In this document: positions 1,777-56,020 of the stretch, piece by piece
Layout of the letters: every line of letters starts with the position of its first letter
Position numbering within the stretch: position 1 is the stretch's first letter
Source of the DNA: Escherichia coli
Lineage (GTDB): Bacteria > Pseudomonadota > Gammaproteobacteria > Enterobacterales > Enterobacteriaceae
Length of the DNA: 64,000 bases
Strand: one strand, 5' to 3'
Assembly: GCF_044324785.1 (NCBI RefSeq)
Contig: NZ_CP172127.1
The notes under the pieces: model-generated
What the model saw: only the letters and a program-made list of their open reading frames with translations
Told to the model about the DNA's origin: nothing
Databases searched by the model: none
Made by a program: the position numbers and the translations under genes

Positions 1777-1959
1777 CTAAAGTCTCCAAAAAATTATTAT
1801 CGGCAATGTCGAAACTTGCCGTTATATCTGCCACCGGAACGGGGTAGCAGAGTTTATGTTTTACCAGGGCGACCGTATCCTGCCGGAAGCGCTGGTTATT
1901 CACAATCGATTTAACACACCATTTACATTAAATTTTAGTGCTCAGCGACACTATTTTTC

Positions 1960-2140
1960 ATCAGGTTGCACTCTCTCACATTTTTTGCGGTTGCACCTTT
2001 CAAAAATGTTAACTGCCGCAGAGAAAAAGTCTGAGTTATTTTTTTAACCCCTGTCATATCGATTTCTTTTATTAACATTTCATTCATTTTTAAGCTTGCT
2101 ACGCAAGTCACATTTAACATGGTTGCACAAAGTTGCAACA
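1960..2140. promoter_or_regulatory. put control region with PutA operator motifs (GTTGCA at 1965, 1990, 2122, 2132)
   Basis: Four GTTGCA hexamers seen in the putP-putA divergent intergenic region; PutA is known to bind GTTGCA sites. Confidence 0.6.
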
Positions 2141-12652: not shown

Positions 12653-12760
12653 CTAGTTGTCACTTTTGCCGTGACTGCTCTTGCCACCTTTTTTACCTGC
12701 TTCTGATGCTCTTTCGCGGTCTTCTGCAAAATTACCGGAACCGCCTCGATGGTTTGCCAT
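12653..12760 (-). CDS. ymdF: KGG-repeat stress protein YmdF-like, 35 aa as encoded here
   Basis: ATG preceded by GGAGG; translation MANHRGGSGNFAEDRERASEAGKKGGKSSHGKSDN; embedded in the longer ORF 12653..12934. Confidence 0.7.
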   Translation of the reverse strand: MANHRGGSGNFAEDRERASEAGKKGGKSSHGKSDN

Positions 12761-27421: not shown

Positions 27422-28495
27422 ATGACAGAGAAAAGAAGAACCCGCTGGCAGCGGCGGCCAGGCACGACGGGCGGCAAATTACCGTGGAATGACTGGCGCA
27501 ATGCCACGACCTGGCGTAAAGCGACGCAATTATTACTGTTGGCAATTAATATTTATATTGCCATCACGTTCTGGTATTGGGTGCGCTATTACGAAACGGC
27601 AGGTAGTACGACATTTGTCGCCAGGCCAGGAGGCATCGAAGGCTGGCTACCGATTGCCGGTCTGATGAATCTGAAATATAGCCTTGCAATAGGCCAGTTA
27701 CCGTCCGTCCACGCCGCCGCGATGCTGTTATTGGTCGCTTTTATCGTCATCAGTCTATTACTAAAAAAGGCCTTTTGTTCATGGTTATGCCCGGTTGGTA
27801 CGCTTTCTGAATTAATCGGCGATCTCGGTAACAAACTGTTTGGTCGGCAATGTGTCCTTCCCCGCTGGCTGGATATTCCCCTGCGCGGCGTGAAGTATTT
27901 GCTGTTGAGTTTTTTTCTCTATATCGCGTTATTGATGCCCGCTCAGGCGATTCACTATTTTATGTTGTCGCCCTACAGCGTGGTGATGGACGTTAAAATG
28001 CTCGATTTCTTTCGTCATATGGGGACCGCGACATTAATCAGCGTGACCGTTTTGCTGATTGCCAGCCTGTTTATTCGCCATGCCTGGTGTCGTTATCTTT
28101 GCCCATATGGCGCGCTGATGGGCGTGATTTCGCTATTATCGCCGTTTAAGATTCGTCGCAATGCCGAAAGTTGTATCGACTGTGGCAAATGCGCAAAAAA
28201 TTGCCCATCACGGATCCCGGTCGATAAATTAATTCAGGTACGAACAGTGGAATGTACCGGCTGTATGACTTGCGTAGAGTCATGTCCGGTAGCCTCAACA
28301 TTGACCTTTTCACTGCAAAAACCTGCAGCAAATAAAAAAGCCTTTGCGTTGTCTGGCTGGTTAATGACGCTACTGGTTCTGGGGATTATGTTTGCGGTGA
28401 TTGGTTACGCAATGTATGCGGGAGTATGGCAAAGCCCGGTGCCGGAGGAATTGTACCGACGCTTAATTCCGCAAGCGCCAATGATTGGTCACTAA
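27422..28495 (+). CDS. yccM: Membrane polyferredoxin YccM (NapH/MauN-like), 357 aa
   Basis: Two CxxxCP and two CxxCxxCxxxCP motifs plus transmembrane segments. Confidence 0.85.
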   Translation: MTEKRRTRWQRRPGTTGGKLPWNDWRNATTWRKATQLLLLAINIYIAITFWYWVRYYETAGSTTFVARPGGIEGWLPIAGLMNLKYSLAIGQLPSVHAAAMLLLVAFIVISLLLKKAFCSWLCPVGTLSELIGDLGNKLFGRQCVLPRWLDIPLRGVKYLLLSFFLYIALLMPAQAIHYFMLSPYSVVMDVKMLDFFRHMGTATLISVTVLLIASLFIRHAWCRYLCPYGALMGVISLLSPFKIRRNAESCIDCGKCAKNCPSRIPVDKLIQVRTVECTGCMTCVESCPVASTLTFSLQKPAANKKAFALSGWLMTLLVLGIMFAVIGYAMYAGVWQSPVPEELYRRLIPQAPMIGH

Positions 28496-28509
28496 ATTAG
28501 CAACAAGCG

Positions 28510-28537
28510 GAACATCACCTCGCACGGGGTGATGTTC
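28510..28537. terminator. Hairpin GAACATCACC-N8-GGTGATGTTC between convergent yccM and gnsA
   Basis: 10-bp perfect inverted repeat; no clean T-run. Confidence 0.4.
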
Positions 28538-28543
28538 ACAAAA

Positions 28544-28717
28544 TCACATTATTTTGATTTTGACATCATAACTTTCAAGCCCGGTCATTTTTTCTCGTGC
28601 GGTGAAGCGAATTTCAGAGACTTCTTTCCCTGTATTCTTGTTCAGCTCGGCGATTTTTTGCGCGATAAAGTCGGCGATTTCCGTTTCGGCTTGTTTTTTT
28701 AACTCTTCAATATTCAC
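28544..28717 (-). CDS. gnsA: GnsA (secG-null suppressor), 57 aa, GTG start
   Basis: Hand-translated from the minus strand: VNIEELKKQAETEIADFIAQKIAELNKNTGKEVSEIRFTAREKMTGLESYDVKIKIM; below the ORF-track length cut-off. Confidence 0.8.
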   Translation of the reverse strand: MNIEELKKQAETEIADFIAQKIAELNKNTGKEVSEIRFTAREKMTGLESYDVKIKIM

Positions 28718-28937
28718 TGTTAACCTCTTCTGGTCTTAAAAGACAGCAACACGCCAGTAAGGTGTTGGTTCCCGGTACCCTGGTCAGGTAAGAAATGTTA
28801 TAAGCCATCTCCCCGAAAGATTCAATAATCAACAGGTTATCGCTTACTATACATACAGCGTTGAAGAAAAATAAGGCAGATATAAAAAAGGCTCCACGAG
28901 GGAGCCTGATATTATTTTGTGAAATCCAGCGGCGCAT
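28707..28937 (-). CDS. ymcE: Small protein YmcE (Sfa), 76 aa
   Basis: ORF 28707..28970 trimmed to MRRWISQNNIRLPRGAFF...; 3' end overlaps the gnsA start by 11 bp. Confidence 0.65.
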   Translation of the reverse strand: MRRWISQNNIRLPRGAFFISALFFFNAVCIVSDNLLIIESFGEMAYNISYLTRVPGTNTLLACCCLLRPEEVNSEY

Positions 28938-29110
28938 GGTCAGTGCGTATTTGCAGCGCGACGTTATCAAAGGTGATCATCGTCGATTTACAAAAAATAC
29001 ACTTAGCGCCCAAAGGGTTTCGCTCCGTCACATCGAATGCCGATGTGCGGTACTGTGAACCATGACAACATGGACAGCGGAAATGGAGATGTTGAGTAAT
29101 AACGGCAACC

Positions 29111-29323
29111 TTAGAGCGTAACAACGTTCGCTGCCGCGGGACCACGTTGCCCCTGCTCAATAGAAAATTCAACTTTCTGATTTTCGTTCAGCGTGCGGAA
29201 TTCATTGCTCTGGATGGCGGTGAAATGGACGAAAACGTCTTTGCTGCCATCATCAGGAGTGATAAAGCCAAAACCTTTATCTGCGTTAAACCATTTTACT
29301 AAACCAGTCATTTTATTAGACAT
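29111..29323 (-). CDS. cspG: Cold-shock protein CspG, 70 aa
   Basis: Cold-shock domain with RNP motifs KGFGFI and VFVHF. Confidence 0.92.
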
Positions 29324-29608
29324 ATTTTACTTCCTTCATTTTGGGCCTTTCGGCAAACAGGGCTTTAATACAGAAACTACTTAGTGTTCAGGAGAGAGAC
29401 TCAAAAGAAGGGGATAATGCCTGATAATGAGAACTGCTTTAGTAAACTACTTTGTATGCTGTCTGTCTTTCAAACCGACGCAGCTATTAACGCATGATAA
29501 TTGAGATTAAGCAAATTTTATTTTAGCCGTCCGGCGGTCTTAAATATCGCTGGCTTTATTTTATTAACCCCGTATAGTGCAGCGCAGTATTTTCAGTAAG
29601 GAATTTGT

Positions 29609-29821
29609 TTGTCCCGTAAAATGACAGGAATTGTCAAAACCTTTGATCGCAAAAGCGGCAAAGGATTCATTATCCCCTCCGACGGTCGTAAAGAAGTCCA
29701 GGTCCATATTTCCGCATTCACTCCCCGCGACGCAGAAGTGCTTATACCAGGATTACGCGTGGAATTTTGCCGCGTAAATGGCCTGCGAGGACCAACAGCG
29801 GCAAATGTTTATTTGTCTTGA
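29609..29821 (+). CDS. cspH: Cold-shock-like protein CspH, 70 aa
   Basis: Csp-fold translation [37 protein letters not shown]...; divergent from cspG. Confidence 0.85.
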
Positions 29822-31119
29822 TGGAGAGCGCACGCCGGTATGCGTGCTTCATTCACGATTTGCGTAAAACCGGCCAACGAACACATGCCCTGCGCGTTTC
29901 GCTCTTCACATCCTGCCAGGGTCAGTTTCACCTCTCCGGGCGGCGTATTTAATGATAGCGGCGTTTTATCACGCATCTGCTGTAAAGTCTGGAAGACCAG
30001 CGAAACCTGAATCCAATGGCTGTTATCGCTTAGCCGACGCCAGCGTTCAAACACCAGTTCACCACCTGGCGGTGTGTTATCCGGCTGACCTGGAAGCGTC
30101 CAGTTGAGCTCCAGTGCGCCGCCGAGATTTGCCAGATTAGTATCGTGTCCGGCAATAAACAGCACTGAAGTGGGTAATGTCACACCATACGCCTGTTTTT
30201 GCGGTGGATGGGGCGTCAACGCTGCCATGATCAAATCCAACAACGGGGTGGCGCGGCTGCGGGCAACCTCTGGCGTGCGTTGTAGCAAATAAAACTGCGC
30301 GTTATGCAAACTTAGCAAGGTGTTCCACTGGTGTGAATCGGTAATCCTTCCCCACCCCGGCTCCGGCATTCCCTGTGCCTGTTGCAGGAGAAATATCTCC
30401 GTCAGCATTGACGCGAGGCTTACCGCACCGGTTAATGAGACATTGTCGGCGCTCACCTTGAGTTCCGATGGTAATGCCTGCGTTAATGAACAGCTTTCGT
30501 CCTGTTTCTCACGGTTAAGGCACAAGTTTGATTGCGGAAAATTAAGCACTCGTTCCAGTTCGCGAAACGCCGTTTGCCGATGCCCGGTAAAGTCAGCAAT
30601 TGACCCTCCTGCCCTGCTGAGGATCGCGTCAGTCACGTTCGCGTTATCCAGTTGGCAAACGCCAGTTTTTAGAGGATTAAATAACGGATCGGGACTGGAC
30701 GTATCTGCCTGGGCATGTACGGTTATTGCACAGTCAGGTGCCAGCCCGGCGGCGAAGGCTTCGCCTGTTTTACGGGTACGCTCGTCGACATCAGCAATAA
30801 TCGCGACCTGACCAGGCTGCGGGCAGCCCTTTTTCGCCAGCAATCCGTCAGCCACCAGACGCTGGCGTTGGTAATGTCCGAGATAGGCGATCAGCTCACC
30901 ACCGCGCGGTGTCAGCCAACCCAGTTTTACCGGCCAGGTTGGCCATGCGTCTGGGGTGACATCCTGCATCAGTTGCGTGGCCTTGGTTGGTGCACGCACA
31001 CCATGACGACTGACAATCACCACACTTTCCAGCTTCAGCTCCGGCTCACTCTGAGCGAATGCAGATTGCGGGGTGAACGGAATCAGAAGAGATAAGAATG
31101 GGATCAAGATCGCTTTCAT
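29809..31119 (-). CDS. appA: Periplasmic acid phosphatase / phytase AppA, with a variant C-terminus
   Basis: ORF 29809..31149 trimmed to [14 protein letters not shown]...; RHGVRAP motif; ends ...[10 protein letters not shown] where I recall ...IPACSL in K-12. Confidence 0.88.
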
Positions 31120-31198: not shown

Positions 31199-31291
31199 TT
31201 AACTTTTCAGACGCGGGTCCAGCCATACCAACACAAGGGTGGAGAGCGAACACATCAACAAAATGCCGACGAACCAAAGTAAATACCACAT
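31199..31291 (-). CDS. appX: Cytochrome bd-II accessory small subunit AppX (YccB), 30 aa
   Basis: Hand-translated: MWYLLWFVGILLMCSLSTLVLVWLDPRLKS, a single transmembrane helix, directly downstream of appB. Confidence 0.75.
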   Translation of the reverse strand: MWYLLWFVGILLMCSLSTLVLVWLDPRLKS

Positions 31292-31303: not shown

Positions 31304-32440
31304 TTAGTACAGCTCGTTTTCGTTACGGCGGAGAGTTTCTGTCGTCATGCGTCCCCACATTTTGTAGTAGCTCCAGAGAGTGTAGAGCAACACAATGGGC
31401 AAAAATATCAGCACGATTACCAACATAATGCTCAGCGTCAGCTGACTGGAAGTGCTGTCCCACAACGTCAGGCTGGAGATTGGACTCACGCTTGACGGCA
31501 TGACAAAGGGGAACAGCGTGATGCCTGCCGTGAAAATCACGCCAAATTGCATCAATGACGCCATCAAAAATCCCCAACCCGGGCGACCACGATAAATCGC
31601 CATCACCGTCAGCAATGGGCAGAAGAACCCCAGCAGCGGGAAGATCCACAAAACGGGCGACTCGACAAAATTATTCATCCAGGCACCAGGTAGCACTGCC
31701 ACCAGTTTCATTAACGGATTGGAAGGACCGTTAGCATCCTGGGCGAGCAGTACAAAGCCATCAATACCGACCCATAGCCAGTAACCCGCCAGCAAAAAGC
31801 ACAGCATCACCAACAGTGCAGCGCGTTTAGTCGCCAGCTGTGAACGCAGATGAATCACACCAACAGTTTTCAGTTGTAACCAGACGCCACCTTGCAAAAT
31901 CACCATCCCAAGGCTGAGCAATCCGCACAATAAAGGGAATGGCGTCAGCAGTTGCCAGAAGCTGCCGAGATACTCCACGCGTAATTGCGGTGTGAAGGCA
32001 AACGGCACGCCGAGCAGCAAGTTGCCGAAGGCAATACCGAAGACTACCGGCGGCACCAGACTGCCGATGACCAGTCCGGCATCCCACATTTTACGCCAGC
32101 GTGCATCGGCGATTTTTCCGCGATAATCAAAGGCCAGCGGGCGGAAGAACAGCGAGCACAGCACCAGAATCATCGCCACATAAAAGCCGGAAAACGCCGC
32201 TGCATAAACTCTGGGCCAGGCGGCAAATAATGCCCCACCTGCGAGGATCAACCAGACCTGATTGCCTTCCCAGTGCGCACCAACGCTATTAATCACTATC
32301 CGGCGTTCATCATCATCACGCGCCACCAGCGGCAGCAAACAGCCAATCCCCATGTCAAATCCGTCGGAGATCATAAAGACCACCAGGATCACGCCAATCA
32401 GCAGCCACCAGATGAAGCGCAATGTTTCATAATCAAACAT
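31304..32440 (-). CDS. appB: Cytochrome bd-II ubiquinol oxidase subunit II AppB, 378 aa
   Basis: CydB-like polytopic membrane protein, [17 protein letters not shown]... Confidence 0.95.
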
Positions 32441-55852: not shown

Positions 55853-56020
55853 TCAGGCCATTACTACCCTGTCCGCCATGGCTTCTCGCCAGCCTCCCAG
55901 CCATTGTGACCTTTGATTCAGCGTCTGATAGGGACACATTTCTTTTGAGCGTCCGGCGATGCCGGCCTGATAACCACGTTGATGTGCCCGTTCCAGGCGA
56001 TCTCGTTTTTGTCTCTTCAT
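55853..56020 (-). CDS. rmf: Ribosome modulation factor Rmf, 55 aa
   Basis: Hand-translated: MKRQKRDRLERAHQRGYQAGIAGRSKEMCPYQTLNQRSQWLGGWREAMADRVVMA; below the ORF-track cut-off. Confidence 0.85.
   Translation of the reverse strand: MKRQKRDRLERAHQRGYQAGIAGRSKEMCPYQTLNQRSQWLGGWREAMADRVVMA

Follow-up and report, generated by a model that had tools for sequence, protein, structure and literature searches.

Small genes of the Escherichia coli cspG-ymcF-ymcE-gnsA cold-shock cluster, and a ymcE reading frame that is probably not a constrained gene

Positions 28,544 to 29,110 of the window analyzed here (a stretch of 64,000 nucleotides from the Escherichia coli contig NZ_CP172127.1, assembly GCF_044324785.1) correspond to the known E. 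coli cold-shock cluster cspG-ymcF-ymcE-gnsA, which lies on the minus strand. Within this cluster gnsA is a separate conserved gene of 57 codons with its own Shine-Dalgarno sequence, GTG start and terminator, and cspG and ymcF form a single unit headed by a cspA-type thermoregulatory leader. The fourth member, ymcE, is probably not a constrained protein-coding gene, and comparison of related sequences suggests that its frame simply runs over a terminator and the sequence that precedes gnsA. Because ymcE does not behave as a constrained gene, the overlap between its end and the start of gnsA is probably incidental, and we consider it unlikely that it couples a toxin-antitoxin pair. Taken as a whole, a known cold-shock cluster in which the ymcE frame is non-constrained provides the best explanation of the data, and we regard it as likely to be correct.

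The segment from 28300 to 29500 is 99.7% identical to the chromosome of E. coli K-12 MG1655 in reverse orientation, with four single-base differences located in yccM, cspG, and the cspG-ymcF spacer, and none in gnsA, ymcE, or ymcF. The gene order, lengths, start codons and overlaps are identical to those of the K-12 cluster (b0990, ymcF, b0991 and b4517), and the RefSeq annotation of MG1655 has the small genes of the window at matching relative positions and under the same names, with appX there called cbdX. This strain does differ from K-12 in that cspH abuts appA, without the IS1/gfc/etp/etk block present in K-12. The locus was found in 5393 of 5426 complete E. coli genomes, and the exact GnsA, YmcE, and YmcF proteins are each present, under those names, on at least 1000 public contigs. 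Six proteins encoded in the window match Pfam families over their full length (GnsAB_toxin, YmcE_antitoxin, YmcF-like, CSD, YbgT_YccB and RMF). The features discussed here are listed in Table 1.

Table 1. Positions of small genes and regulatory features in the 64,000-nucleotide window
Feature	Position	Strand	Description
ymdG	1935..2057		40 aa, experimentally reported
ymdF	12653..12760		35 aa in this window
gnsA terminator hairpin and RNA 3' end	28505..28537	-	Fold -15.6 kcal/mol, z = -3.5; 3' end at 28505
gnsA CDS	28544..28717	-	57 aa, GTG start 28715..28717, GnsA/GnsB family; ORF, and RefSeq gnsA at the same place
A7 run in gnsA	28694..28700	-	Codons 6-8 (TTA AAA AAA); site of the O157:H7 A6 frameshift allele
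ymcE stop / gnsA start overlap	28707..28717	-	11 bp
Annotated ymcE ORF	28707..28937	-	76 aa, ATG start, no Shine-Dalgarno
gnsA Shine-Dalgarno	28724..28727	-	GAGG, 6 nt 5' of the GTG
Conserved element upstream of gnsA/gnsB	28797..28832	-	TTGATTATTGAA ... TTATAAC; Escherichia and Citrobacter alignment
cspG-ymcF intrinsic terminator	28883..28907	-	AGGCTCC-CTCGT-GGAGCCT, then T-run; inside ymcE codons 11-19
ymcF CDS	28912..29100	-	62 aa, ATT start 29098..29100, four-cysteine motif CPCC...CIFC; RefSeq 'cold shock small protein YmcF'
cspA-type thermoregulator	29057..29479	-	cspG mRNA leader and coding region; Rfam RF01766
cspG CDS	29111..29323	-	70 aa; ORF, Pfam CSD, RefSeq cspG
appX (cbdX)	31199..31291	-	30 aa, cytochrome bd-II small subunit, directly 3' of appB (31304..32440); RefSeq cbdX
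rmf	55853..56020	-	55 aa, ribosome modulation factor; ORF, RefSeq rmf

The initial annotation had reported gnsA, appX, and rmf as small genes recovered by hand translation and absent from the list of open reading frames, and in this it was accurate: the length and GTG start of gnsA agree with ORF prediction, translation and RefSeq, the 11-bp overlap with the ymcE stop is as described, the positions given for appX and rmf are those of genuine genes, and all four sequences, ymcE included, align with their K-12 RefSeq counterparts and with curated families. AppX matches PF08173 (YbgT_YccB; 8.5e-12, 45.4 bits), the NCBIfam equivalog NF011333 (80.8 bits), and PDB entries 7OSE and 7OY2, and these matches above cut-off, together with the position following appB, identify it as CbdX/AppX. 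RMF is likewise placed among the ribosome modulation factors by above-cut-off matches to PF04957 (1.7e-22, 79.6 bits) and to the equivalog NF011162 (92.1 bits), and it matches ribosome structures 6H4N and 4V8G. Both proteins thus match curated equivalog models and solved structures, with no notable difference from the known proteins. The genes gnsA, appX, and rmf are therefore real and well known, and neither they nor ymcE as annotated represent anything new, because RefSeq gives the same names in K-12, the curated families match, and structures of GnsA, AppX, and RMF have been solved. Their absence from an ORF track is plausible with a cut-off of 60 aa, which is the default of the ORF lister and lies above the lengths of all three products. 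The list of missed genes was nonetheless incomplete, omitting ymdF, ymdG, and also ymcF, which is within the interval itself; RefSeq lists four coding sequences shorter than 60 aa in the part of the K-12 chromosome that corresponds to the whole window, namely ymdF, gnsA, cbdX (appX), and rmf. That such cut-offs hide small proteins is well known, and as these small genes are already present in every E. coli annotation the finding as first written changes nothing.

The Rfam match to RF01766 scores 157.1 bits against a gathering score of 78 and extends over model positions 1-428, placing the cspG leader and coding region among the cspA-type thermoregulators. YmcF matches PF23641 (YmcF-like) over residues 1-62 of 62 (1.6e-49, 166.4 bits, cut-off 27), and this full-length match is accompanied by conservation of both its cysteine motif and its start. 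The CPCC...CIFC motif is found in nearly all of 14 sequences, with single substitutions in two of them (L014 and L019), and the ATT start, with a Shine-Dalgarno sequence that overlaps the upstream csp stop codon, is present in all 14, which come from Escherichia, Citrobacter and phage. In the window the ATT lies 10 nt past the cspG stop. Because the annotated start is ATT, a list of open reading frames based on ATG, GTG, and TTG shows ymcF only as an 86-aa frame with a TTG start.

Relatives of the cluster were collected by a scan with GnsA using one genome per species, which yielded six further Escherichia loci, six from Citrobacter, and one distant match. The genes cspG, ymcF, and gnsA are intact in all 12 Enterobacteriaceae loci insofar as they are covered by the contig and readable, cspG being cut by a contig end in L014 and its N-terminal part unrecoverable in L019. 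Measured against the window in the other Escherichia, pN/pS is 0-0.10 for cspG, and 0-0.14 for ymcF, whose ORF and ATT start are intact in all of those compared. Among seven E. coli alleles ymcF has about 11 synonymous differences and one non-synonymous difference. Thus ymcF is real, and as the best-conserved partner of cspG it merits more attention than ymcE. Weaver et al. (2019) make no mention of ymcF, ymcE or cspG.

GnsA matches PF08178 (GnsAB_toxin) over residues 1-54 of 54 (7.6e-36, 122.3 bits, cut-off 27), a full-length match above the gathering score that assigns it to the GnsA/GnsB family, and it matches PDB entries 4XO1 and 4XO2 ('Protein GnsA') at about 1e-31. It is intact in all 12 of the Escherichia and Citrobacter genomes examined, pN/pS against the window is 0-0.11 among the other Escherichia, a GTG or ATG is retained at the start position in Citrobacter, and the AGAGG preceding the start is invariant in the alignment of both genera. 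Folding of the gnsA leader reveals no more structure than in shuffled sequence (z = +1.4). At its other end, published Term-seq data place the primary 3' end of gnsA at K-12 position 1052279, which is the window position given with the gnsA hairpin in Table 1. In terms of function, overproduction of gnsA or gnsB is reported to raise unsaturated fatty acid content and to suppress fabA6 and secG-null defects (Rock 1996; Sugai 2001; both as cited in a preprint that adds ASKA clone data of its own), and in preprint data plasmid-expressed gnsA or gnsB rescues growth of certain mutants without killing.

The one exception to the integrity of gnsA is within E. coli itself. In the O157:H7 allele the A7 run is reduced to A6 in the alignment, and the gene carries the label 'frameshifted' in RefSeq. 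Exact matches to the A6 allele were found in 295 complete genomes, as against 3970 for A7; the 40 A6 genomes among the matches listed all seem to be members of the O157:H7 lineage (EDL933 and Sakai are among them), and of the alleles inspected only this O157:H7-type A6 breaks the gene. Because gnsA is frameshifted in the O157:H7 lineage, it is dispensable in at least one successful lineage. The A6 run was considered as a possible programmed -1 frameshift site, as A_AAA_AAC is in frame there, but no stimulatory element accompanies it and we include it as a remark only. We also suspected a more widespread coding frameshift, since the locus was one base short in about one in four E. coli genomes of a spread sample; in three such genomes outside O157:H7, however, the missing base is in the yccM-gnsA intergenic region and all of the coding sequences are intact.

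The behavior of ymcE is quite different from that of its neighbors. Its start codon is lost in four of the six other Escherichia genomes (AGG in L012, L013, and L015; ATA in L014), and the frame is broken in four, through an in-frame stop following a 9-nt deletion in L012, a 1-nt deletion in each of L015 and L017, and scrambling of the sequence in L016, such that one or the other is lost in all six. The pN/pS for ymcE is 0.85-1.4, as compared with values no higher than 0.14 for ymcF, gnsA, and cspG. Synonymous divergence in ymcE is 0-0.09 in five of the six other Escherichia and 0.20 in L016, values mostly below those of the neighboring genes (mostly 0.1-0.35), which suggests that constraint acts at the nucleotide level (DNA or RNA) rather than on the protein. 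No full-length ymcE is present in any of the six Citrobacter loci, YmcE has no match among 50,697 phage records, and inspection of the sequence preceding the ymcE ATG shows no Shine-Dalgarno. Frame disruption in close relatives had been named in the initial annotation as evidence that would count against these small genes; gnsA withstands that comparison except in the O157:H7 lineage, and ymcE does not. The suggestion that ymcE is a small gene equivalent to gnsA is thus not supported, given the loss of its start and frame, a pN/pS near one, and the mapped terminator within it.

That ymcE is listed as a protein by RefSeq, UniProt, Pfam, and NCBIfam is a counterpoint to viewing it as a non-gene. 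YmcE matches PF15939 (YmcE_antitoxin; 1.6e-56, 188.9 bits) and the NCBIfam equivalog NF007379 (187 bits, cut-off 163), and these full-length matches establish membership of the families as defined, although this is not proof of translation.

The terminator lying beneath the ymcE frame has both sequence and transcript evidence. The hairpin begins 4 nt past the ymcF stop and 54 nt into the ymcE ORF, the start of which overlaps the end of ymcF by 26 bp. A terminator scan identifies a seven-pair stem followed by a T-run, with a fold of -12 kcal/mol (z = -3.8). Published K-12 Term-seq data include 3' ends at 1051900 and 1051901, classed as "internal, ymcE", with a Rho score of 0.51, meaning that they are not Rho-dependent, and a terminator score of 8.09, where a score above 3 predicts intrinsic termination. 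These ends map to window positions 28884 and 28883, within the U-run of the hairpin, and the GC-rich hairpin, the U-run, and a 3' end insensitive to inhibition of Rho together identify an intrinsic terminator. The hairpin after ymcF is retained in all of the Escherichia loci, in most of those from Citrobacter, and in phage PhiR42_1, with differences confined to the loop or to G-U pairs in the stem.

A second conserved feature under the ymcE frame lies between this terminator and gnsA, and the same TTGATTATTGAA...TTATAAC motif is found upstream of gnsB in phage PhiR42_1. From its sequence the element may be read as a sigma-70-like promoter, with a TTGAAT hexamer (28820..28825), a spacing of 17 nt, and a TATAAC hexamer (28797..28802). 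A scan for consensus promoters did not flag this candidate gnsA promoter because the second hexamer ends in C, and no transcription starts for the gnsA region were found in the supplements to the Cappable-seq and SMRT-Cappable-seq studies.

One alternative is that ymcE is a young gene specific to E. coli, which arose over regulatory DNA and whose product is now a small membrane protein with its own role. The frame is indeed intact in every E. coli allele inspected and the exact protein is widespread, but divergence within the species is so low that an intact frame means little, and the seven alleles differ by six non-synonymous and two synonymous changes, an approximately neutral ratio. YmcE has a hydrophobic central stretch, although the residues concerned are encoded by the T-run of the terminator and the AT-rich spacer. 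Overexpression from the ASKA ymcE clone has been reported to raise butanol tolerance slightly. The native frame lacks a Shine-Dalgarno. We consider it improbable that ymcE is a young gene of this kind.

Comparison with Citrobacter and with phages suggests how the ymcE frame may have come about. In five of the six Citrobacter loci a different gene, also of 76 aa, is present between ymcF and gnsA, and is homologous to ynfN of phages and of the Qin prophage; likeness to ymcE in Citrobacter is limited to the nucleotides just upstream of gnsA. The lambdoid phages similarly have ynfN in place of ymcE between ymcF and gns, and YmcF and GnsB co-occur in seven Escherichia phages. These YnfN-like 76-aa proteins are not recognized by Pfam or NCBIfam. 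Where ynfN is upstream of gns, as in the phages and in most Citrobacter loci, the two genes are separated by about 170-210 nt and do not overlap. One further candidate was dropped from this comparison: ynfQ had been taken as a paralogue of ymcF, but the published description is of a different 37-aa protein near ydfK, and the neighbor of cspI is ynfR.

We therefore favor, as fairly likely, the view that ymcE is an open frame left on regulatory DNA after loss of ynfN. The locus would then most likely work as follows. A single cold-inducible transcript, about 600 nt long, would carry cspG and ymcF, starting near 29479, where the Rfam thermoregulator match begins, and ending at the terminator inside "ymcE", with ymcF translated from the conserved AUU next to the cspG stop. 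As a separate cistron, gnsA would probably be expressed from the conserved upstream element, through read-through of the terminator in the cold, or both. Once the ynfN gene of an ancestral module had been lost, the ymcE frame would run by chance across the end of ymcF, the cspG-ymcF terminator, the spacer, the promoter-like element and the gnsA leader.

A variant with a role for translation is that ymcE is a leader-like regulatory frame, in which ribosomes moving over the hairpin tune read-through and then reach the gnsA start, the peptide itself being irrelevant. Such a frame does not require amino-acid conservation and so fits a pN/pS near one, and the ymcE frame both includes the hairpin and extends to a point 8 nt past the gnsA GTG. 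The Qin counterpart of this frame, ynfR, is a short frame next to cspI that crosses the equivalent terminator of that prophage, and its tagged product has been detected and is cold-induced; because ynfR has been detected as a protein, translation across such a hairpin is possible. However, four of the six other Escherichia lack the ymcE ATG and in four the frame no longer reaches gnsA, a Shine-Dalgarno is again lacking, and in most of the Citrobacter loci a whole gene, ynfN, intervenes between the hairpin and gnsA. We thus think it unlikely that ymcE acts as a translated leader, and it is a little more doubtful still that ymcE and the Qin ynfR are both leader-like ORFs in which ribosome traffic over the csp-ymcF hairpin sets cold read-through into gns. 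If this were true, it would amount to a translation-coupled attenuator common to chromosomal and prophage cold-shock modules.

Another reading takes ymcE and gnsA to be a true type II toxin-antitoxin operon, with YmcE as the upstream antitoxin, GnsA as the toxin, and translation of the two coupled by their overlap. The Pfam families are named accordingly, RefSeq labels GnsA an 'addiction module toxin', a modelling paper that cites the GnsA structure paper lists the pair among the type II systems of E. coli, and a slight overlap between two small genes is typical of systems of this kind. The antitoxin would nonetheless be expected to be conserved beside its toxin and to be under purifying selection, and neither is observed, with ymcE having lost its start or frame in each of the six other Escherichia, where gnsA is intact, and being absent at full length from Citrobacter and the phages, and with its pN/pS values lying far outside the range seen for gnsA. 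For most gns genes of Citrobacter and phages the preceding gene is ynfN, and the two do not overlap; an intrinsic terminator lies inside the proposed antitoxin gene, and this gene has no Shine-Dalgarno; the plasmid-expressed gns genes rescue growth and do not kill; and the PDB contains neither a YmcE chain nor a YmcE-GnsA complex. A functional toxin-antitoxin pair therefore seems to us a poor prospect. The label "YmcE antitoxin / GnsA toxin" is weakly supported, because the ymcE frame is unconstrained and spans a terminator, a promoter-like element, and the gnsA leader.

The useful by-product of this analysis is thus a point of curation. The frame behind the toxin-antitoxin label, which is repeated in Pfam, in RefSeq, and in modelling papers, is unconstrained and has been disrupted in sister species, and it coincides with a mapped terminator and with the conserved sequence that precedes gnsA. 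Counts and models of E. coli toxin-antitoxin systems should therefore treat ymcE-gnsA with caution.

The ymcE-gnsA pair shares with type II toxin-antitoxin operons such as relBE and mazEF the arrangement of two small adjacent genes on the same strand, a short overlap, and toxin and antitoxin labels in the databases. It is unlike them in that the proposed antitoxin is not conserved with the toxin, a terminator is present inside ymcE, and there is no known complex. A further parallel is with the csp-ymcF-like-ynfR/terminator-ynfN-gnsB module of lambdoid prophages, as seen in Qin and PhiR42_1, which has in common with the chromosomal cluster a csp gene, a ymcF homologue with an ATT start, the terminator hairpin, the conserved element, and a gns gene. 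The phage module and most of the Citrobacter loci have the 76-aa ynfN between the terminator and the gns gene, whereas the Escherichia chromosomes lack ynfN at this position, and it is the shortened spacer there that is annotated as ymcE.

The gnsA gene carries a run of seven adenines (A7) in the window, whereas in the O157:H7 lineage the run is shortened to six (A6), an allele present in 295 complete genomes. This change renders gnsA a pseudogene in the O157:H7 lineage. Because the A6 allele contains in frame the sequence A_AAA_AAC, a classic −1 slippery heptamer, rescue by frameshifting at a low level is conceivable. A separate 1-nt length difference lies in the yccM-gnsA intergenic region of about one in four E. 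coli genomes from a spread sample, and leaves the coding sequences untouched in all three such genomes checked.

Features described in this part, with window coordinates unless a locus is named
Feature	Position	Strand	Remarks
ymdG	1935..2057	-	40 aa; putP-putA intergenic region
ymdF	12653..12760	-	35 aa in window
yccM-gnsA 1-nt length difference	about 28538..28543		intergenic
gnsA A7 run	28694..28700	-	
ymcF	28912..29100	-	ATT start, 10 nt past cspG stop
cspH	29609..29821	+	within 29324..29830
YnfN-type protein (MKKVIVFFNSE...)	L018, L020-L023 (Citrobacter loci); L025:1599-1829 (phage PhiR42_1)		76 aa

The Shine-Dalgarno sequence of ymcF overlaps the cspG stop, and its ATT start is conserved in all 14 sequences from Escherichia, Citrobacter and phage, nearly all of which also have the four-cysteine motif CPCC...CIFC. 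Several phage records leave the ymcF homologue without annotation. The interval between ymcF and the gns gene is occupied in Citrobacter and lambdoid phages by a conserved YnfN-type protein, to which no Pfam or NCBIfam model matched; the Escherichia chromosomal ymcF-gnsA locus lacks it.

Two other small genes are present elsewhere in the window. The ymdG product differs by one substitution (I4V) from the 40-aa protein YmdG reported by VanOrsdel et al. (2018), and the only RefSeq entry at this position is a 69-aa hypothetical protein. The ymdF product is shorter than the 57-aa K-12 protein, reflecting a 66-nt in-frame deletion between two copies of a RASEAGKKGG repeat. All eight matches listed retain the 66 nt, and one of them, from strain N3, shows 100% identity to the window here apart from that segment; the short allele therefore looks either rare or an assembly artefact.

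Finally, cspH directly adjoins and overlaps the end of appA in the window. Among 5426 complete genomes, 1669 gave a match that spans this junction and covers 80% or more of the query, and strain AST215 is 100% identical across it. K-12 differs in having a block of IS1, gfcABCDE, etp and etk, which is absent from this interval of the window.
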